Shown in pieces: positions 2,747 to 33,897 of a stretch of DNA of 36,350 bases (position 1 is its first letter; the number at the start of each line of letters is the position of its first letter). The position numbers and the translations under genes were made by a program. The stretch lies in UHGV virus genome UHGV-0207457; one strand, 5' to 3'. Below the pieces are notes generated by a model. That model did not search any database. It was not told the DNA's origin and was given only the letters and a program-made list of their open reading frames with translations. The stretch is from a virus.

Positions 2747-2771
2747 GGGACTCTTCGGAGTCCCTTTTTTT
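2747..2771 (+). terminator. Intrinsic terminator (UUCG-loop hairpin + T7 tract), abutting the stop of the convergent 80-aa gene
   Basis: GGGACTC-TTCG-GAGTCCC followed by TTTTTTT. Confidence 0.65.
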
Positions 2772-3012
2772 ATGCAACAATTCGAAGTGTAAGTTTCTTA
2801 TGTTGTGTAGGTTTAGTTTCATTTCGCCACTCAGGGAATACATGATCCATCATAACCGCATTAGTCTCATCAATCAGCTTTAAGGACTTTCTCAACGCCT
2901 TATTATCAGCTTTAAGTGTTTTAATCTCTGATTCCATCGCTACCATTCTTTCTTTCATTTTGGTAATTTCTAACATCAGATTACCCAGAAATTCTTTGTT
3001 TTGATTCATCAT
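2770..3012 (-). CDS. Small coiled-coil protein (80 aa)
   Basis: ATG ATG at 3012/3009 with GGGGTGA RBS; heptad-like MLEITKMKERMVAMESEIKTLKADNKALRKSLKL; last gene of the leftward operon. Confidence 0.5.
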   Translation of the reverse strand: MMNQNKEFLGNLMLEITKMKERMVAMESEIKTLKADNKALRKSLKLIDETNAVMMDHVFPEWRNETKPTQHKKLTLRIVA

Positions 3013-3027
3013 AGATTCACCCCTCTA

Positions 3028-4023
3028 TTAAGCTGCGTATGCGTAGGCGCTGTAGTTGGTGTCGTAGATAGCGTCATGCAGTGCCATCTGTGCTTCGCGG
3101 ATCTCGTCTTCGTTTACTTCAATCTCTTCTTGTTCTTCTTCGGTATCTTCCCAAGTGGTTTTGAATTTAGCCATAAAGTTATTGCGCAGGGATTCAAAGT
3201 TAGTAACAGGTGCGGATTCTTTTTCAACTTCAACCGGAACAACTACCGGAGCAACTTCTTGTTCTACTTCTGCAACAACACCCCAGCGATAGTTAAGGAG
3301 TTCTTCCAGTTCTTCATCAATGGATTTTTCTTCAACTGCTTCAACTTCAACCGCTGCTACTTCGAAAGTGGTTTCCTGTGCTGCCAGTTCAGCTTTCAGA
3401 GATGCGTTTTCAGCTTCCAGTTCAGCAATGCGTGCTTTCAGTGCTTCAACTTCGGAAGATTCAACCACTGCAACTTCTTCTTTAACTTCTTCAACTACTA
3501 CCGGAGAAACTTCTTTCTGTGCTTCTTTTTTGCAGAAGAAGGAGGAAGTAACCTGTAATGCGTGGTTGTAGAAGGAACCGCCTTTAGCGGTGTTAACAGT
3601 ACCAGAAACATCCTTTACAGTGGATTCGGTAGCAACAGTACGGAAGCGTTTTGCGACTTCCTGGGTCTCTACGCCGTATTCGTTACGTTTGCTCTTGTGA
3701 TGCATTACAGCACGGAAGCCGGAAGCAGTTTTAACAACAGCCAGATAGTAAGTTTCATCAGCTTTAACAGCACGAGCGAAGCAATAAACGGATTCACCTT
3801 CTACCAGTGTAGGTTTAACGTGACGTTTGTCGAAACGGTTAGTGATCTGCCATTCAGCACCGTCTTTGATGCCAGCATTCTGACGCATTTCGGTCAGAGT
3901 CTTACCGGATACTACTTCAAAGGATTTGTCTTGTTTGCTTGCTTTACCTTCCATGACGGTAATGTTCAGTTTGCCGTTGGATTTAATAAACAGGTTGAAG
4001 GTGATGCGCTTAGAATTTTTCAT
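3028..4023 (-). CDS. Hypothetical early protein (331 aa): N-terminal globular domain plus strongly acidic E/V/A-rich coiled-coil C-terminal half
   Basis: ATG at 4023 with GGAG RBS; the antisense + strand ORFs here are Phe/Asn/Cys-rich low-complexity, so the - strand is the coding one. Function not recognised. Confidence 0.75.
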   Translation of the reverse strand: MKNSKRITFNLFIKSNGKLNITVMEGKASKQDKSFEVVSGKTLTEMRQNAGIKDGAEWQITNRFDKRHVKPTLVEGESVYCFARAVKADETYYLAVVKTASGFRAVMHHKSKRNEYGVETQEVAKRFRTVATESTVKDVSGTVNTAKGGSFYNHALQVTSSFFCKKEAQKEVSPVVVEEVKEEVAVVESSEVEALKARIAELEAENASLKAELAAQETTFEVAAVEVEAVEEKSIDEELEELLNYRWGVVAEVEQEVAPVVVPVEVEKESAPVTNFESLRNNFMAKFKTTWEDTEEEQEEIEVNEDEIREAQMALHDAIYDTNYSAYAYAA

Positions 4024-4074
4024 TTATAAATACTCCTGAATGCTCTGTGTTAGTTTTAATGTTTCATGCTAAAA

Positions 4075-4110
4075 GCCTCCTTGCGCCAACAGGGAGGCTT
4101 TTTTATTTTT
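4075..4110 (+). terminator. Strong rho-independent terminator on + strand, located between two genes of the leftward (-) operon
   Basis: GCCTCC-N11-GGGAGGC hairpin followed by TTTTTTATTTTT; on the - strand the same hairpin is followed only by UUUUAGC. Confidence 0.5.
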
Positions 4111-4142
4111 AAAGCCATCATATAATTCTCAGTGAAAGTGGA

Positions 4143-4322
4143 TTAACAAACTTGAACGTTAATCTTTATCTGAATTTCGTATTTCTTCATTAGCTTATAG
4201 AATCCGCTTCTATCAATTCCTTCCTTCTTAAAGAAATTCTCGCCGCCTCGTTCAGTATCGCCATAAAAGCGTTTAGCAATATCAACAATCATTTCACGAG
4301 TAAACTTAACAGGTCTAGCCAT
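4143..4322 (-). CDS. Small DNA-binding protein with Fis-type C-terminal HTH (59 aa)
   Basis: ATG at 4322 with GAGGA RBS (the track start at 4337 is TTG); EGIDRSGFYKLMKKYEI matches the Fis/NtrC-type HTH motif; first gene of the leftward operon, next to the operator palindromes. Confidence 0.55.
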   Translation of the reverse strand: MARPVKFTREMIVDIAKRFYGDTERGGENFFKKEGIDRSGFYKLMKKYEIQIKINVQVC

Positions 4323-4421
4323 AAGTAGATTCCTCAAATGTGGATTAATAAGGACAATAAAAAGAGCTTTTCGCCCTCGATACTTCTATTTATAAAATGA
4401 TTTTCAGAAAACCCTGTAAAA

Positions 4422-4443
4422 CCACTGTATATCCGATCAGTGG
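4422..4443. promoter_or_regulatory. 22-bp palindromic operator candidate CCACTG-N10-CAGTGG
   Basis: Perfect 6-bp inverted arms with a 10-bp spacer, ~100 bp upstream of the leftward operon start. Confidence 0.45.
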
Positions 4444-4506
4444 GAGCACGAATTGCTAAAGAGAAGATTAATAATTAATCAATTCGTACATTATTCAATC
4501 GAAAAA

Positions 4507-4543
4507 GCACTGTATGTTTAACCAGTGCTGTATGTGTTAACAG
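4507..4543. promoter_or_regulatory. Second palindromic operator GCACTG-N10-CAGTGC overlapping a LexA-box-like CTGT-N8-ACAG
   Basis: GCACTGTATGTTTAACCAGTGC at 4507-4528; CTGTATGTGTTAACAG at 4528-4543 fits the E. coli SOS-box core CTGT-N8-ACAG. Confidence 0.4.
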
Positions 4544-4887
4544 TGAATCAGGGGATTTTCAGAAGTGAACAATCATTTCATGCATGTATTTATACACGAA
4601 AAAATCTTGCTTATCATCAATATGGGGATTGTTTCGAAAATTTCAACCCCTACCAACGAGAAAAAGTATAAAATAATCCTTGATAGTTGTCAATACACTT
4701 GACCTAAGCGAGAAATGACTATCAAAATTTTTGTGTGAAAATGGCGGATAACGATTATCAACCTTTATAACCTATTATAGCACGGCGACCTTTTGATCAT
4801 TCCTTTTAAATCATTCGGTTACCGCGATTTTTGGTGATTTTATGATTAAATAATATACAAGAATTTTCTATCAAAATTTTTGATGAA

Positions 4888-5010
4888 AACCCTACACTAC
4901 AAACCTACACTTTAAAGGGATTGGCCTACACTACACTAGCCAGTAAACCTACACTATAACACCCTCAAACCTACGCTATGAAACCTACACACCTACACTA
5001 ACCCTACACT
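4888..5010. repeat. Iteron array: at least 8 direct copies of (A)ACCTACAC(T) with roughly helical phasing
   Basis: Copies start at about 4891, 4904, 4925, 4948, 4970 (variant CCTACGC), 4984, 4993, 5003; spacings 9-23 bp; sits in a 1.2 kb ORF-free region. Confidence 0.7.
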
Positions 5011-5349
5011 TCAATCTCATAAGTGTATGATCTTGAAAGACATTTAACCTCACAGACCATAGAATATAAAATTCGAACTAACGTTCTCCTTTTTGCTCGT
5101 TTTCTCTCACTACGTTCAAGAAAGATCTCGCAAAAAGAATACGGCGTAGCCGTGCGCGAAGCGCCCATCAACACCTTCTAAGACCTGCAAGCAGGATTCG
5201 AAAGGGATTGGATAGTTCGCTTCGCTCACGTTCACGCCTACGGCGTTCACTCACTTTTGAAAGGATTTTCTTAGAAAGGGATTTAATACTAGTTACTAAC
5301 TGATTCTAGTAAACGAACGAAGTGAGTAACAATCACTTTCTAGAAAGGT

Positions 5350-5390
5350 ATTGGTATCCCTTCGGGATTGCAACCTTCGGTTGCTAAATT
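5350..5390 (+). ncRNA. Tandem UUCG-tetraloop hairpins (ATCCC-TTCG-GGAT; GCAACC-TTCG-GTTGC) ending an ORF-free structured segment; candidate small RNA 3' end or processing site
   Basis: Two adjacent perfect stems with TTCG loops followed by an A/T-rich tract; no ORF of 60 aa or more anywhere in 4338-5583. Confidence 0.25.
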
Positions 5391-5583
5391 GCTTCCTGAT
5401 TATTATTTCTCCAAAAGAAAGATTCTTATATTCTAAAGATACTTCTTCGTTTTGATGATGATTTAATCAAAACTATGAAGGAGGGCTATGCCCGACTGAA
5501 TACAATCACCTTTCATAATAACAAGAATTTTCTCTTTATAAATAATATTAGATTGATTCACTTTCTTTTAGAGGATTTCCACT

Positions 5584-6051
5584 ATGAACCATAAAATGAC
5601 TACCACTACTCCTTTCATCCTGTTAGGTTTTGATGCTGATAGCTTCCACAATGACAAGTTAATGAAGATGTTCCGTGAACGTGGTTATAACATCCTTTTC
5701 AATTCCGATGAATCCCATTTCTCTAGTGCATGGTATGCGTTTTGCCGTAATAAGAAGCCGACCATTGTTGTTAACGTCTTCACCGATGAAGATCGCTTAA
5801 AGTACCAGAATCTACCAGCAATTATTGTTCGTGATGATCTGCCGTTTGAAGTCCGTTCCGGTGACATTGATCTGGGTAGCTTCGTTACTGTCTATGAACT
5901 GGATGAAGCAATGTTTAACTACGGCAAAGAAACCGCTCAGGAAGCCCCAGAACAAGATGAAGAAGATGAGGAAGACGAAGACTACGCTCCAATCTGTTTT
6001 TCTTCTCAGAATGGCTTCTACGGTTACGATGAAGGCTTAGATATGCTGTAA
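5584..6051 (+). CDS. Hypothetical protein (155 aa) with acidic C-terminal tail
   Basis: ATG at 5584 after AGAGGA; tail QEAPEQDEEDEEDEDYAPICF; function not recognised. Confidence 0.65.
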   Translation: MNHKMTTTTPFILLGFDADSFHNDKLMKMFRERGYNILFNSDESHFSSAWYAFCRNKKPTIVVNVFTDEDRLKYQNLPAIIVRDDLPFEVRSGDIDLGSFVTVYELDEAMFNYGKETAQEAPEQDEEDEEDEDYAPICFSSQNGFYGYDEGLDML

Positions 6052-6442: not shown

Positions 6443-7258
6443 ATGAATACTGTTACTACTATGAATACTGCTGTTAAAACTGCTTCCGTGTCTCTGGTTG
6501 TTGATAACACCAAACCACTGACCATGTCTTCTCGTCAGATCGCTGAATTTACCGGAAAAGAACACAAAAACGTTAAAGCTGATATTGTTAAGATGTTTAA
6601 AGCACTTGAATTAGATGCGCTGAAATCTCAGCGTATCTATTTTGACCAATATGGACGCGAACAAACCGAATATCACCTTGACGAAGAAATGACGCTGACT
6701 CTTGTTACTGGTTACGATGTTAAACGTCGAATGATTGTTATTCAGGAATGGAAACGACTGAAAGAAGAAAATGAAAAACTGCGTCAGGAACGGTTAGCCG
6801 TTAACCCGTATGCAGACTTTGAAGAAACCGACTGGATCGAACTGGCGTTAAAGAAAACTCGCGAGAACAAGCAACTGATTACTCTACATCATCGCAAATC
6901 CGTAGATAGCCATTCAATGACGCGTTTGTTAGGTGCTAAAAAGGGCGCTACGAAGGTTAAAGAAGCACTGACGGCCTTACGTACTGCCGGATACATTGAG
7001 CGCGTCTATGATGAAAATAACAAGCCGTGTGGGTATGTTGCTAATGATTCCGCGATACCGTTTTGCAGCATGAACGCTCACTATCAACTTTCTTTCACTG
7101 TTGATGTGCTTCCGGTGCTGGTTGAATTGGGTGTTCTTGAAGAAGAACAAAAAGCAGCTTTGACACTGCCTAAACCGAATAACACGATCATGATTCAGAA
7201 TAAAGCGACTATCATGATTCGTCAGAATGTTGGATCGCTAGAACACTTCGGACTGTAA
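6443..7258 (+). CDS. Rha-family phage regulatory protein / antirepressor-like (271 aa)
   Basis: N-terminal TMSSRQIAEFTGKEHKNVKADIVKM matches the Phage_pRha motif; separate C-terminal domain; followed by an intrinsic terminator. Confidence 0.75.
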   Translation: MNTVTTMNTAVKTASVSLVVDNTKPLTMSSRQIAEFTGKEHKNVKADIVKMFKALELDALKSQRIYFDQYGREQTEYHLDEEMTLTLVTGYDVKRRMIVIQEWKRLKEENEKLRQERLAVNPYADFEETDWIELALKKTRENKQLITLHHRKSVDSHSMTRLLGAKKGATKVKEALTALRTAGYIERVYDENNKPCGYVANDSAIPFCSMNAHYQLSFTVDVLPVLVELGVLEEEQKAALTLPKPNNTIMIQNKATIMIRQNVGSLEHFGL

Positions 7259-7340: not shown

Positions 7341-7571
7341 TCAAATTCCTGTTGCTTCTACCATTTCACCGTCAACCTGAACAAAGAATTTCAAATCAAC
7401 TTTATGTAGGGATTTGTATAGCTGGGCTATAGATAAGCCATGCTCATTTAATACCCGTTCTTTGTTCTCTTTACCTTTCGGTGCTTGATAGTATGCTTTT
7501 ACAATCGCTGCCAGTTGTTCACGATTAAAACGGGCAGGGCGACCGCGAGTAGCTTTAGTAGTCATAGTCAT
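7341..7571 (-). CDS. Small HTH DNA-binding protein (76 aa)
   Basis: ATG at 7571 preceded by GGAGAAA (the track start at 7598 is GTG); TRGRPARFNREQL and HGLSIAQLYKSLHK look like an HTH. Confidence 0.5.
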   Translation of the reverse strand: MTMTTKATRGRPARFNREQLAAIVKAYYQAPKGKENKERVLNEHGLSIAQLYKSLHKVDLKFFVQVDGEMVEATGI

Positions 7572-7600: not shown

Positions 7601-8206
7601 TTATTTAGAGGACTTACATTTTATCGGAAAAAGTTCTCCATCGTCAACCGACATAAAGAACTCTGCCTTAATCCCGTACTTCTTCAACCGTGAATAATAT
7701 GTACCCCGACTAATATCAACCTTGCGCAGCACTTCGAAGAACTCTTTAGGATTCCTGTAATAGTGGCTATATCGCACGTTAGCGAGTTCTACAAACAATT
7801 CCCTTGAATCACCATAGCCTTTCTTGAAAGCCACGTTACGATAGCGTGTAATGGCATGATTCAATCTCTTCTGTTTAAGCACTTCCCTGATCGGCTTCCA
7901 CTGCAACCGATAGATTGGACCGTCATCCACTCGATAATAACGCTTGATATCAAAATCAAACCATTCACGGACTCGCTGAAACTCTGTCTGTGATGTGCGA
8001 TGCTTCTTAAAGAAGTTATGAATATCGGTATACCCATGATCGCGATACAACTCGATTAAAATCTGTTTCGCTTCCTCGCGACTAAAGCCGGATGTTGTGT
8101 AATCAGTCTTCTTGTGATGGTGCTTAACTGGCAAACGATATTCATGATCGGTACAACAAGAAAAGGCTAATTTTAATTCATCTCTTTGTTGCTGATTAAT
8201 TAGCAT
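7601..8206 (-). CDS. Hypothetical basic protein (201 aa) with Fis-type C-terminal HTH
   Basis: ATG at 8206; VDISRGTYYSRLKKYGIK matches the Fis/NtrC-type HTH; transcribed divergently from the large terminase. Confidence 0.6.
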   Translation of the reverse strand: MLINQQQRDELKLAFSCCTDHEYRLPVKHHHKKTDYTTSGFSREEAKQILIELYRDHGYTDIHNFFKKHRTSQTEFQRVREWFDFDIKRYYRVDDGPIYRLQWKPIREVLKQKRLNHAITRYRNVAFKKGYGDSRELFVELANVRYSHYYRNPKEFFEVLRKVDISRGTYYSRLKKYGIKAEFFMSVDDGELFPIKCKSSK

Positions 8207-8293: not shown

Positions 8294-10198
8294 ATGAAAC
8301 TGATTTCTAATAAGGCAAAATTAAAAAAGATTCTCAGAAATATCACTGCTGCAATTCGCCCACCTAAAGCAATGAAACCTAGCGAGTGGGTAGAGGCTAA
8401 CGTAGTGGCTACCGATGGTGTTAAAGCCGGATCTCTAATTAAATTGCATCCCTTCCAACGTGGAATGATGGACGCGATCACCGAAGACCGTAGAAAAATT
8501 GTGCTAAAGTGCTCGGCACAGTTGGGTAAAACTCTTGTGCTAAACGGTATTATCTTTCACAGGATCGCCAGTAACCCTACTAATATCGGTGTTTTGCAAG
8601 CGAACGTTCGAGAATTGAACTCATGGATTGCGGGTAAGGTGAAGCCAGTATTAGAGGCAACCCCAGAATTAAAGGCGATGATCACCGACAAATCAGATCG
8701 CAATGCCGTTAACAACTCATCGATTATTCAGCTTCGTAACGGATCATTCATGTATTTCATGTCGCTGAACAGTCCATCACACTTGCGCGGTAAGACACTG
8801 CCTTTGATTATTCTGGATGAAGTTGATGCGGCTGATGAGTCAGACGAAGGGAACCCGATCCAGCTAGCGGAACAACGCGCAACCACTTTCGGTGATGATG
8901 CAAGGATCGTAATTGCTTCTACTCCAACTTCGCGGGATGGGGCGATAAACCAACAATGGGAACTCTCGGATAAAAGAAAATACCACGTCGTTTGCCAGCA
9001 TTGCGGACACAAACACGTAATGGAATGGAGTAGAGTATTCTTTGATTGGCATGTAATCAATGGTAAATCACTGCCGAATCCAGACACAGCCGTTTACCGT
9101 TGCCCGTCATGTGAAACTGATTGGTCAGAACCAGATCGCCTCCGTGCTGTTGCTCAGGGAGAATGGGTCGCCACCGAACCAAATGCGGAAGTAATCGGTT
9201 TTCATGCTAACCGCCTTATGTCTCCGTTTAGTTCTATCCGTGCGTGTGTGGTGGACTTTGCTGATAGCTACGCGAATATGTCACTGGCAACGTTCTATAA
9301 TGTGGTGCTCGGTGAAACCTTCGATGATCTTAACGAAGACCGCACAGCCGACGAACTGGAAACGCTGAAAACTGACATTAGCTTAGATAATATTCCTGAT
9401 GATGTTCTGGCTCTGGTAGGTGGAGTTGACCAGCAAAAAGACCGTCTGGAATCTACCTTGCTGGGTATCTCTCGTAAGGGGATATGCGTAGTTGATCACC
9501 GATCATTCTATGATGTGAACTGCGAACGCCACGAATCGCCAGCATATGACCAGCTTTATAACTTCCTGAAAGCGAAATTCTATACCCGATCCGGTGAACG
9601 AATCCCGATGCTATCTGCTTTCGTGGACTCATCGAACGGACGAGCTACAAACGTGATCTACCGTTTTTGCACTAGGTGGCAAAACCTATGCGCCATTAAA
9701 GGCGCAAGTAATGCTGATGCTCCAATCCTTCCGGCTAAGGACACAAGAACGGGTGGTTTTACCCTTAAAATTCTGGGCGTAAACAACCTTAAAACGATGA
9801 TCCGTGAAATGATTAACCGGAACTTGAGAGATGGCGATCCTCACACTGTCTTCCAGATTGGCGACGTTCCTGATGACTATTGCGAGCAATTGCTTTCTGA
9901 ACAGTTGAAACGGCAGGGTAATACCACACGTTGGGTAAAAGTTGGTCAGCAACGAAACGAGGCGCTCGACTGCCTGGCTTATTCCTATGCTGCTTCTCGC
10001 CATGTACTCAATAAAATGTCATGGGAAAAACTCGAAGCCATCAAAGATAGTTTGAACCGTGAACCAGAAGAATCCGTAGAAGCTCCTAAATCGCAATCTG
10101 ACGAGAAAATAGAAGAAACTAAGCCAATCACACGACCACAACGTCAAAACATCGCCAGACGCCCAAATAGAGGCCGTGGCTGGGTAACATCGTTCTAA
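8294..10198 (+). CDS. Terminase large subunit, lambda gpA-like (634 aa)
   Basis: Walker A-like SAQLGKT, Walker B ILDEVD, zinc-finger-like CQHCGH...CPSC; size and position ahead of the portal. Confidence 0.85.
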   Translation: MKLISNKAKLKKILRNITAAIRPPKAMKPSEWVEANVVATDGVKAGSLIKLHPFQRGMMDAITEDRRKIVLKCSAQLGKTLVLNGIIFHRIASNPTNIGVLQANVRELNSWIAGKVKPVLEATPELKAMITDKSDRNAVNNSSIIQLRNGSFMYFMSLNSPSHLRGKTLPLIILDEVDAADESDEGNPIQLAEQRATTFGDDARIVIASTPTSRDGAINQQWELSDKRKYHVVCQHCGHKHVMEWSRVFFDWHVINGKSLPNPDTAVYRCPSCETDWSEPDRLRAVAQGEWVATEPNAEVIGFHANRLMSPFSSIRACVVDFADSYANMSLATFYNVVLGETFDDLNEDRTADELETLKTDISLDNIPDDVLALVGGVDQQKDRLESTLLGISRKGICVVDHRSFYDVNCERHESPAYDQLYNFLKAKFYTRSGERIPMLSAFVDSSNGRATNVIYRFCTRWQNLCAIKGASNADAPILPAKDTRTGGFTLKILGVNNLKTMIREMINRNLRDGDPHTVFQIGDVPDDYCEQLLSEQLKRQGNTTRWVKVGQQRNEALDCLAYSYAASRHVLNKMSWEKLEAIKDSLNREPEESVEAPKSQSDEKIEETKPITRPQRQNIARRPNRGRGWVTSF

Positions 10199-14531: not shown

Positions 14532-14822
14532 ATGTTCAAATTATCAGAATCACAATTAAATCGAATGTTTAAAAGTGCTCCTGTATTTGTGGTGGAAGGT
14601 GGTAAATCAATTCGTGCTTATCATGAAATTACTACTACCGACGAATCAGGGGTAATGACAGAAACAGAATTTCTATTCTGTCGTGAGGGAGACTTAAAGC
14701 AAGGTGATATTGTCACAGTAGAAAACCAGCGTTTCAAAGTTCAATACGTTAAGCGTAATGGTGATAATACAACTGATTGCTTTATTACTCTGGCAGGGGG
14801 TACACATGCTCGCTATCGTTAA
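14532..14822 (+). CDS. Head-tail connector/adaptor protein (96 aa)
   Basis: Strong RBS AGGGGG; position directly after the capsid gene. Confidence 0.55.
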   Translation: MFKLSESQLNRMFKSAPVFVVEGGKSIRAYHEITTTDESGVMTETEFLFCREGDLKQGDIVTVENQRFKVQYVKRNGDNTTDCFITLAGGTHARYR

Positions 14823-15228
14823 TAATATGCCTAGACTGAAAATCAAACGCGCCTTGCAAGATATTATCGAACAAGATTTAGGTCTGGCTTTAAACGTAGA
14901 ACAAACTCAGCAAGGCTTTAGTGATGACGTGGTTTGTTGGATTACTGGTATGAATGAGACTTACACTAGGGTCCGTGGTGGTAATGCAATGCAAGCTGAA
15001 TGCGTTATCGAAATGCAGTTATATTCTCAGATTCATGAAACGAAAATTCATGAGGGTATTTGCCAGATAATCCAGATTCAGCCGGATAACCCACGATTTA
15101 AAGATTTGGGCTTCTCTATTTCAGATATCACTCCAGTAGCCTCTAATACCGATTATGACGATGATTCTAGTGATGGGGGTATCGTTGGGACACTTAGCCT
15201 TAAATTTTCTTATCTAGCGCGTTTTTAA
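14806..15228 (+). CDS. Head-tail joining / tail completion protein (140 aa)
   Basis: ATG at 14806 after AGGGGG, overlapping the previous stop (track start 14758 is upstream in the same frame). Confidence 0.55.
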   Translation: MLAIVNNMPRLKIKRALQDIIEQDLGLALNVEQTQQGFSDDVVCWITGMNETYTRVRGGNAMQAECVIEMQLYSQIHETKIHEGICQIIQIQPDNPRFKDLGFSISDITPVASNTDYDDDSSDGGIVGTLSLKFSYLARF

Positions 15229-32154: not shown

Positions 32155-33834
32155 TTAAATTCCAAATTCTTGTAATGGACCTGGTATTTCTTCTTCTGGT
32201 TTCCAGTTCTTATCTGTCAGCATGTCTAAACATGGATGCAGAACAAGCCCGTTACTCTCCAGAATCTGCCTATCATTGATAGTCTTCAAATCAACGAAGA
32301 TCCGGCCTTTCCTCGGTCCTCTTGAATTTTCTATTACAACTCTCTGGGTCTTGCCATCGATGTATTCCAGTACAAACAAGTTTTTGTACTTGTCAATCCT
32401 GCTGCACCCGATCCGTTTTAGAGCTTGCTTAATCTTAAACCGGACCTTAATGCGATCCTCGTTGTAAACATCTTCTAAATCAAATTCTGCGAGCTTCTCC
32501 CAGCCTTGAGAGTCAACAGAATACATTTCCTCTTCTGCCATCTTAAGTTGATTGTAGAGTGTTTCACGCTCGCTATTGAGGGTAGTAATCTGATCGGCTA
32601 GCTCCTTCGTTGCTCCTGTCATAGCAGAAAGGGTAATCAGGTTATCAATCTTGCGTGATATTTCATCAATCTGTACTTTCAAAGCCGGAACCGGATTAGC
32701 CTTATCTTCAGCAATCCAGATTTTATCAGCCAGCAATTGCAATACAGCTTTCTCTAATTGGTCGCCGCGAAAACTCCAGTTTGTATGCACACATTCAATA
32801 CGACTAGAGCGCATTGCATCGCATGAATAACGATATTGGTTAGGCCGTCTGTTTGTTCCTTTCACCTTAACCATAGCGGAACCGCAATGTTCACATTTCA
32901 ATAGACCAACACCACTAAGCAAGGGAATAGGTTTAACTTCTTCTTTGTCTCCAAAGTTACATGCTCTAACACCAATGCTTTTCTTAAGGTGATAAAACTC
33001 AGCGTCATCTAGCACACGAGGATAATAATCCTTTAACTCATACTTAACGCCATCTACAGAGATTTCCTTGATACCAATCAAAGCGCGGGTATGGAACAAC
33101 CTTTCAATCATTGCCCGTGACCAGTTTGAATGCCTCTTGTGACTTGCGGCTGGTGGTGGTGTGTATGTCGCGTTAAGGTGATCCAGTATCTCGGCGGTTG
33201 ACCGTCCATTCCTGCGTAATTCCACAACTTCCTGAACAATAGGGAAGAAGACCGGATGAGGAAGCACATAACCAGATGTGGTATCAGTCCACCACATATT
33301 CTTTCCAATTTCCTCGATTGCAACAGCCGGATTTTGTGGATTTTCTTGATGAGCTTTAATCTTAATCAGTGCGCTTGAGTTAGTACGATTGCGCTTAGTC
33401 TGGCTTTCCTCATTACCACGGATGAATAAAAGGATGGAGAACATCAGGTCCATCGGGTTAGCGGTAACAGTATCAAGCGAGTAGATCTTGTTATCCATGC
33501 CAGTAACAATGGTTATCCCCCTACGGATGATTGAAAGGAATAACTCCTGCGCACTGACAATATCGGCACGGGATAAACGGTCCAAGTTTTCGATGAATAG
33601 CCAGCTACCAACAGGAACGGATCTACCTATTGCATCAAGGAAACGAGATAGCGCCCCTGTTTTGGAGTTAGCACCCTTAAACGCAGATACACCCAGATCC
33701 TGATAATCATTTACCAGTTCAAGGTCATACTTTACCGCAATCTCTCTAGCCATCCTGATTTGTCGTTCATAACTCGAACCATCATTCTGACGCATAGACG
33801 AGAAGCGAATATACGAATACAGTTTAGTTTTCAT
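32155..33834 (-). CDS. Large serine recombinase (integrase), 559 aa
   Basis: N-terminal resolvase catalytic domain (YSYIRFSSMRQ ... SYERQ ... ENLDRLSR), central recombinase domain, zinc-ribbon-like CEHCGS...YRYSC, C-terminal coiled coil; ATG at 33834 (track start 33849 is TTG). Confidence 0.85.
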   Translation of the reverse strand: MKTKLYSYIRFSSMRQNDGSSYERQIRMAREIAVKYDLELVNDYQDLGVSAFKGANSKTGALSRFLDAIGRSVPVGSWLFIENLDRLSRADIVSAQELFLSIIRRGITIVTGMDNKIYSLDTVTANPMDLMFSILLFIRGNEESQTKRNRTNSSALIKIKAHQENPQNPAVAIEEIGKNMWWTDTTSGYVLPHPVFFPIVQEVVELRRNGRSTAEILDHLNATYTPPPAASHKRHSNWSRAMIERLFHTRALIGIKEISVDGVKYELKDYYPRVLDDAEFYHLKKSIGVRACNFGDKEEVKPIPLLSGVGLLKCEHCGSAMVKVKGTNRRPNQYRYSCDAMRSSRIECVHTNWSFRGDQLEKAVLQLLADKIWIAEDKANPVPALKVQIDEISRKIDNLITLSAMTGATKELADQITTLNSERETLYNQLKMAEEEMYSVDSQGWEKLAEFDLEDVYNEDRIKVRFKIKQALKRIGCSRIDKYKNLFVLEYIDGKTQRVVIENSRGPRKGRIFVDLKTINDRQILESNGLVLHPCLDMLTDKNWKPEEEIPGPLQEFGI

Positions 33835-33897
33835 ACCATTTCCAAACAAAAACGCCCCTACCGCGTATTATAACGATAGGGGCTAGGTGATTAAAGA

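Follow-up and report, generated by a model that had tools for sequence, protein, structure and literature searches.

Three sites upstream of the leftward early operon of an Escherichia coli prophage, UHGV virus genome UHGV-0207457 (about 36 kb, about 41% G+C; the whole stretch of 36,350 bp is called the window here), are probably SOS boxes of the host repressor LexA, through which the operon would be brought under the control of the SOS response. Two 22-bp palindromes about 85 bp apart and an overlapping CTGT-N8-ACAG motif had been reported at this place in a preliminary description, and all of them were found exactly at the positions given there. Palindrome 1 (CCACTG-N10-CAGTGG) reads CCACTGTATATCCGATCAGTGG and occupies 4422-4443, while palindrome 2 (GCACTG-N10-CAGTGC) reads GCACTGTATGTTTAACCAGTGC, occupies 4507-4528 and starts 85 bp from the start of the first; the CTGT-N8-ACAG site, CTGTATGTGTTAACAG, lies at 4528-4543 and has one base in common with palindrome 2. 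Downstream of the sites, at a distance of 101-223 nt, is the ATG (4322) of the first gene of the operon, which encodes a protein of 59 amino acids (aa). The exact pattern CACTG-N10-CAGTG is represented in the window by these two palindromes only, and with at most one mismatch it has three matches versus 0.61 expected, a number reached in one of 100 shuffles. Both palindromes are also CTGT-N8-ACAG with a single mismatch each (TCAG and CCAG instead of ACAG), and the core CTG-N10-CAG, as well as the start CTGTAT, is present in all three sites. Since CACTG-N10-CAGTG contains the LexA core CTG-N10-CAG, the region carries three LexA-type sites, and not the one separate LexA-like box beside two palindromes of another kind that had been described at first.

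The enterobacterial LexA box is the 20-bp sequence TACTG(TA)5CAGTA with the invariant core CTG-N10-CAG, and the E. coli consensus is the right yardstick here because the prophage host is E. coli. The sites were scored by the heterology index (HI), with the Berg-von Hippel/Lewis formula and a matrix derived from 18 E. coli boxes (PMC3009722, Table 4), on which the real boxes, when left out of the matrix, received values from 0.6 to 12.8. The best of the three is box 2 (CACTGTATGTTTAACCAGTG, 4508-4527), with an HI of 6.7, followed by box 3 (TGCTGTATGTGTTAACAGTG, 4526-4545), with 8.6, and by the weak box 1 (CACTGTATATCCGATCAGTG, 4423-4442), which adjoins an AGCAC-N4-TGCT palindrome and, with 11.5, stands at the edge of the range of real boxes. 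Boxes 2 and 3 are arranged in tandem, 18 bp from start to start, and box 1 starts 85 bp from the start of box 2. Box 3 is a perfect match to the CTGT-N8-ACAG consensus core, and boxes 1 and 2 deviate from it at one position each; the variant CCAG occurs also in the published boxes of recN, dinI, uvrD and dinB (PMC3009722). In the whole window, an HI of 13 or less was reached only by the three boxes and by three much poorer or incomplete sites. Sites as good as box 3 appeared with a mean of 0.06 per simulated 36-kb window in 300 first-order Markov simulations, and three sites with an HI of 11.6 or less within 125 bp appeared in none of the 300 simulated windows; by the LexA matrix, the cluster is far beyond chance.

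Homologous intergenic regions were gathered from E. coli genomes, IMG/VR contigs, metagenomes and further contigs, and two types of cassette between the 59-aa gene and an array of iterons were distinguished among them, type A with the boxes and type B without them. The type-A set comprises the window and 24 other distinct haplotypes, which always carry the three sites. Within these 25 haplotypes the variation is lowest at CTG and CAG, whose positions have a mean minor-allele count of 0.39, compared with 2.0 for the N10 spacers and 1.5 for the remaining positions; their variation is about 4-5 times lower than that of the spacers and the surrounding DNA (permutation P of about 0.02-0.04). The HI of box 2 stays between 4.8 and 9.6 over the 13 tabulated site combinations, and its CTG and CAG are intact in further metagenome variants too. 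The outer arms of the palindromes are not protected in this way: AACTG, TACTG (twice), CAGAG, CAGCG and CAGTT were seen, none of them compensated in the opposite arm. Altogether, ten different arm changes are uncompensated and none is compensated, which argues against an RNA or cruciform stem and equally against a protein that reads CACTG; two of the changes go toward the LexA consensus TACTG. Thus, the hint of direct LexA control that the preliminary description had attached to a single motif is the best-supported reading for all three sites, as judged from the core motif, the matrix scores, the statistical excess and the conservation.

The type-B cassettes (loci L015-L018, L020, L022, L026, L028, L031, L033, L035, L160, L163, L165 and L168, compared over the first ~300 nt upstream of the 59-aa gene) contain five TGTTA direct repeats with a spacing of 8-13 bp, which we take to recall ArcA half-sites, and a second AGCAC-N4-TGCT palindrome. 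No LexA-like site was found in the type-B cassettes, nor in any intergenic region of one complete type-B prophage. The blocks common to both types (the hairpin GGGGATTG..CAACCCC, ATGTATTTATACACGA and the palindrome; blocks X, Y and Z) stand in permuted order in A versus B. The palindrome AGCACGAATTGCT (AGCA-N5-TGCT, 4445-4457), at a distance of 3 bp from box 1, is the sole long block common to A and B in the cassette segment; it is present in one copy in type A, being invariant in the 25 haplotypes, and in two copies in type B, where the second copy stands roughly at the place of box 2 of type A. It is a candidate operator for a conserved phage protein.

The comparison of the two types bears on the idea, favoured in the preliminary description, that the palindromes are operators of a lysogeny switch, bound by a repressor of the phage itself, their likeness to LexA boxes being coincidental or a mimicry. 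Such operators would fit the presence, in an early regulatory region, of symmetric sites of 20-22 bp, of which two are neighbours and the third is 85 bp off, the strong conservation of the region, the occurrence of three small proteins resembling helix-turn-helix (HTH) paralogues (of 59, 74 and 201 aa), and the fact that a prophage must silence its early genes, yet no repressor was identified. However, no candidate protein co-varies with the sites. The 59-aa protein exists in three allelic types (45-60% identical), which assort independently of the cassette type, and its identical alleles b and c occur with both cassettes, by which this protein was rejected as the binder of the sites. In the type-B locus L020, the right arm, with the 59-aa, Rha, 74-aa and 201-aa proteins, is identical to that of the window. 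Nor is the cassette type linked to the genes of the 74-aa, 201-aa and Rha proteins, to the 155-aa gene or to the cargo located near the integrase; a type-B-specific repressor among the cargo genes, from the lysis genes to the integrase, was likewise rejected, the cargo being found with both cassettes. Among the phage proteins encoded by the genes compared, none follows the boxes in their presence or absence, no CI-like (HTH_3/S24) or other repressor family was detected by Pfam among the 20 unassigned open reading frames (ORFs) scanned, in agreement with the preliminary description, which had seen no CI-like repressor, and no conserved ORF was found in the 1.26-kb intergenic region. Neither a repressor gene beside the operators nor a co-variation of operator and repressor between relatives, both expected of phage operators, was observed. 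In addition, it is CTG-N10-CAG that is conserved, and not the longer CACTG arms; the asymmetric half CTGTAT, typical of LexA, is present in all three sites; and the strong predicted early promoters are not overlapped. With neither a protein of the phage that goes with the sites nor a repressor of the CI kind found, operators of a phage repressor are unsupported and are considered quite unlikely. Since no phage gene differs consistently between A and B, the simplest assumption is that the type-A sites are bound by a host protein, for which LexA is indicated by the sequence.

The promoters were predicted with a consensus scan of the tool used and with an own position weight matrix (PWM), and by both scans the only strong ones are a divergent pair, the leftward P_L and the rightward P_R. 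The near-consensus P_L (TTGACA-17-TATACT, minus strand, 4665-4693, 11 of 12 positions matching) has the top PWM score and a predicted start at about 4658; it scores 12.7-14.3 in 27 of 27 type-A haplotypes, the other candidates being weak or unstable. Among the latter is P_mid (TTGAAT-16-AATTAT, minus strand, 4471-4498, PWM score 5.7), a weak candidate between boxes 2 and 1, which is kept as TTGAAT-16-AAT(T/A)(A/G)T in 24 of the 27 haplotypes. P_R (TTGACC-18-CAAAAT, plus strand, 4699-4728) is a candidate divergent promoter that faces the iterons and is supported by the consensus match only. The -35 block of P_mid and the AGCACGAATTGCT palindrome have an equal 40-bp spacing in A and B and form the only segment kept in this manner. 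A short hairpin followed by a U-run (minus strand, 4359-4378), revealed by the terminator scan and similar to a terminator or an attenuator, directly precedes the site at which ribosomes would bind to translate the 59-aa gene. It is kept in all relatives, with three different stem sequences, all of them with a stem of 5-6 bp followed by T5-6 and with energies from -6.7 to -8.8 kcal/mol. In type B, one or two consensus leftward promoters are located 420-480 nt upstream of the 59-aa gene. As the P_L-like promoter and the hairpin are features of both types, the conserved design consists of a strong promoter, a long leader, a terminator-like hairpin and the operon. A hairpin that ends a leader of 335-480 nt recalls the termination control of the P4/N15 type or processive antitermination. 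Two copies of TATCAAAATTTTT, within 23-bp direct repeats at 4720-4732 and 4869-4881, fit the integration host factor (IHF) consensus WATCAANNNNTT, one of them lying over the -10 element of P_R and the other just before the iterons. No Rfam family was found in 4000-6000. An ORF of 45-48 codons (4525-4702), considered as a small LexA-regulated protein or toxin, was rejected by its frame-breaking indels in the relatives.

With this leader in view, the palindromes might also act as hairpins or alternative pairings of the RNA, in attenuation, in antitermination or as an immunity element in the style of P4/N15, and the binding of a protein to the DNA would then play no part. The sites do lie inside the predicted P_L leader, between a consensus promoter and the terminator-like hairpin at 4378-4359; the leader folds better than shuffled sequences (-81.1 kcal/mol, z = -4.0), the cassette flanks GAAAAUCCCCUG and CAGGGUUUUC can pair, and a long leader follows a consensus promoter in both cassette types. 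However, the palindromes inflate the folding z-score by construction, and what is conserved of them is a CUG/CAG stem of only 3 bp with a loop of 10 nt, which makes no credible helix. The ten uncompensated arm changes, with not a single compensated one, led to the rejection of the palindromes as RNA hairpins, and a role of this kind is regarded as very improbable.

The assignment of the three sites to LexA has also to be weighed with a number of observations that speak against it, first of all the position of the sites. LexA boxes normally overlap the -35, the -10 or the start of the regulated promoter. The boxes of the prophage lie at +114 to +236 of the predicted P_L transcript, in a leader of about 335 nt, and nothing convincing as a promoter overlapping boxes 2 and 3 was found on either strand, by eye or by the PWM. 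Since the boxes overlap no good predicted sigma-70 promoter, repression would need either a roadblock or the weak P_mid; we know of no precedent for a LexA roadblock, and, if P_mid is a true promoter, its start would have boxes 2 and 3 upstream, at about -44 to -81, and box 1 downstream, at about +22 to +41. The own matrix differs from the original matrix of Lewis (1994), and therefore the HI scores are not directly comparable with the published thresholds; box 1 is marginal, and its spacer contains G+C. In box 3, CTG is changed to CCG in two groups of haplotypes (L021/L157/L162/L164/L167 and L032), with an additional change of CAG to CAA in L164, and in box 1 CAG is changed to CAT in L009 only, a locus whose match to the 155-aa gene is partial (24% of the length); not every box is indispensable by these losses. 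The conservation argument is a modest one, because the whole stretch 4409-4500 is highly conserved beyond the boxes and the haplotypes are related, not independent.

Some of these points suit another explanation, in which the boxes are LexA-like by descent, for instance in a captured cassette, and non-functional in the prophage, or in which they are inverted repeats associated with a replication origin. The odd placement relative to the promoters, the decay of boxes 3 and 1 in some lineages and the nature of the cassette as a swappable block, with the order of X, Y and Z permuted between A and B, agree with it, as does an iteron array about 350 bp away. This array (AACCTACACT, about nine copies with 11/22-bp phasing, 4888-5014) is a putative origin, located outside the LexA cassette. 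The second gene of the operon encodes an acidic protein of 331 aa (minus strand, 3028-4023), and in each of the 33 loci compared (L001-L033) its type goes with that of the iterons. The AACCTACACT iterons go with the 331-aa protein and, wherever the stretch reaches that far, with the 80-aa coiled-coil protein of the third gene (minus strand, 2770-3012; weak coiled-coil matches only), which has no match in the loci with the other iteron type, while two P-type loci stretches end before this gene. The TTTTTGCCCCTGAA iterons are accompanied by an unrelated protein of about 313 aa, and L032 has a third iteron type, CCAATATACCTACA, with neither of the two proteins. Because of this co-variation, the 331-aa protein is probably the iteron-binding replication initiator; there is no other recognisable replication gene in the prophage. 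The cassettes do not follow the iterons: type A is combined with iteron types P, Q and the third, and type B with P and Q. The independence of cassette type and iteron type argues against an origin-specific role of the boxes, whereas a mere relic is contradicted by box 2, which is good in all variants, and by CTG and CAG, which are less variable than their surroundings. Non-functional or origin-associated repeats are considered an unlikely explanation.

If the sites are LexA boxes, the transcript from P_L would run in its leader through the tandem boxes (4545-4508), the palindrome (4445-4457), the weaker box (4442-4423) and the hairpin (4378-4359). In an undamaged lysogen, LexA dimers on the boxes would hold back the leftward expression by one of two routes: LexA may block the RNA polymerase arriving from P_L, or it may occlude or bracket P_mid, perhaps with the help of a phage protein bound to the palindrome that covers the start site. 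After DNA damage, the self-cleavage of LexA stimulated by RecA would leave the boxes empty and the operon would be expressed, which in turn may lead to replication from the iteron origin and to lytic development. A more far-reaching version takes LexA for the de facto repressor of the prophage, acting from an unusual place downstream of the promoter: the phage itself would lack a repressor for the leftward replication operon, which would be silenced by host regulators bound in the long leader that follows a constitutive consensus promoter, through an exchangeable cassette. The type-A boxes would then either stop the elongating polymerase in the manner of a roadblock or flank a weak promoter as brackets that form a loop, which would make the phage inducible by SOS, and the TGTTA repeats of type B would serve a different host sensor that responds to another signal. 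This version is put forward as a speculative and rather unlikely extension.

The control of prophage genes by LexA boxes is already well known, and it is the phage family that is uncharacterised. Clusters of boxes are usual in SOS genes under tight repression, lexA having two boxes and the colicin genes two overlapping ones. The sites of the prophage share with the E. coli SOS operators, such as those of recN, lexA, the colicin genes and dinB, the same CTG-N10-CAG core, the CTGTAT half-sites and the clustering, and box 2 is identical at 16 of 20 positions to the published dinB box, CACTGTATACTTTACCAGTG. In a published table, recN has three boxes, 18 and 22 bp apart. The E. coli operators overlap the -35, the -10 or the start, whereas the boxes of the prophage are at +114 to +236 from a strong promoter, and the third of them is 85 bp off.

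In the tum promoter of phage 186, the antirepressors of Gifsy and Fels-2 and the antC operon of N15, LexA boxes stand before the genes that start the induction. The likeness to these systems consists in a temperate enterobacterial phage with coupling to SOS, predicted in the present case, and without an SOS-cleavable phage repressor. The target is an antirepressor there, with a CI-type repressor present, whereas here it is an HTH-like protein and a putative initiator, with no CI-like repressor detected; the Rha/Ant-like gene of the window (6443-7258) is without a LexA box. In CTXphi (PrstA, bound by LexA and RstR) and in the Bacillus phage GIL01 (LexA and gp7), LexA is a direct co-repressor of early genes. 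The prophage resembles them by the boxes in the early control region and by a possible partner palindrome, AGCA-N5-TGCT, 3 bp from box 1, and resembles GIL01 also by having no CI-like repressor; the bracketing of P_mid with a phage factor on the palindrome, if real, would be similar to the arrangement of CTXphi. It differs from both in being a siphovirus-like prophage with a serine integrase and unrelated proteins, in having no recognised counterpart of gp7 or RstR, and in having sister type-B phages without LexA boxes. With the lambdoid OL/OR it has in common three symmetric sites of similar length in an early control region of a temperate phage. However, there is no adjacent repressor gene, no co-variation of operator and repressor and no overlap with divergent promoters here, and two sites are adjacent with one 85 bp away, while the lambdoid sites are spaced by 3-7 bp.

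Should LexA occupy the boxes, a widespread and unstudied family of E. coli prophages would have its replication and early operon under direct SOS control, while the type-B sisters would not be SOS-controlled, and the two types would form a natural matched pair for the swapping of induction signals among phages that are the same in other respects. This would bear on the mobilisation of prophages by SOS-inducing antibiotics. Two features are worthy of experiments, namely the natural cassette swap that removes the boxes and their location in the leader, a long way beyond the sole strong promoter, which makes them a useful test of LexA as a transcriptional roadblock.

As regards the other products of the region, the first gene of the operon (minus strand, 4143-4322) had been labelled as a Fis-type HTH gene; its 59-aa protein looks HTH-like by eye, and the label found no support in sequence searches of Pfam, PHROGs, NCBIfam and PDB, where no family was obtained for it. 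For the 331-aa protein, nothing matched in Pfam, NCBIfam or PDB, and homologues came from Escherichia and Salmonella only. The 59-aa protein, the 74-aa protein (7341-7565) and the C-terminal part of the 201-aa protein (7601-8206) look like paralogous small HTH domains with the shared pattern R-P-x-K/R-F-x-R-E ... G-I/L-x-x-S/A-x-F/L-Y-K-L; no Pfam, PHROG or NCBIfam match was obtained for any of the three, and they may be the own regulators of the prophage family. The stretch 5130-5520, which precedes the 155-aa gene, is conserved and G+C-rich and contains a series of small hairpins, with UUCG, UGCG and GAA loops and with stems such as ATCCC-TTCG-GGAT, GCAACC-TTCG-GTTGC and GGGC-TAT-GCCC versus GGC-GAA-GCC. 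It has no Rfam match, and the covariation in RNAalifold is almost nil, the region being too conserved; it could be a structured 5' untranslated region, a non-coding RNA or a single-strand priming signal of the origin.

The 331-aa protein is found with the same neighbours in many E. coli chromosomes, with the insertion in ycdX or next to hicAB/yncJ. The 1.6-kb region was present in 58 of 5,426 complete E. coli genomes, with 85-99.6% identity and always on the chromosome; many of the carriers came from pigs and many were strains named as enterotoxigenic E. coli (ETEC), and the region was found in gut and food metagenomes too. No relevant characterised relative of the regulatory region was recovered by megablast or blastn among 50,697 phage records and 72,556 plasmids, a scan of genome contigs for the large terminase (TerL) found nothing, and a 16-mer scan, whose query was too short, returned only chance matches in unrelated phyla. 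The literature searched for the site sequences, the protein accessions and the ycdX prophages contained no prior description, and in the NCBI annotation the early genes are 'hypothetical' save the Rha-family regulator. Besides the early region, the window encodes a large serine recombinase (32155-33849), a large terminase of the lambda-GpA type (8294-10198), and portal, protease-capsid, tail and lysis genes. The sole gene similar to a terminase small subunit (1508-2062; phrog_57, E = 1.6e-10) is separated by about 6 kb from that of the large subunit, with the early and origin region between the two. A 91-nt tRNA-Glu(ttc) was called by ARAGORN on the minus strand at 14993-15083, within an ORF of the opposite strand (14758-15228) that belongs to a block of plus-strand ORFs immediately after the capsid gene; to judge from its length and position, it may be a false positive.

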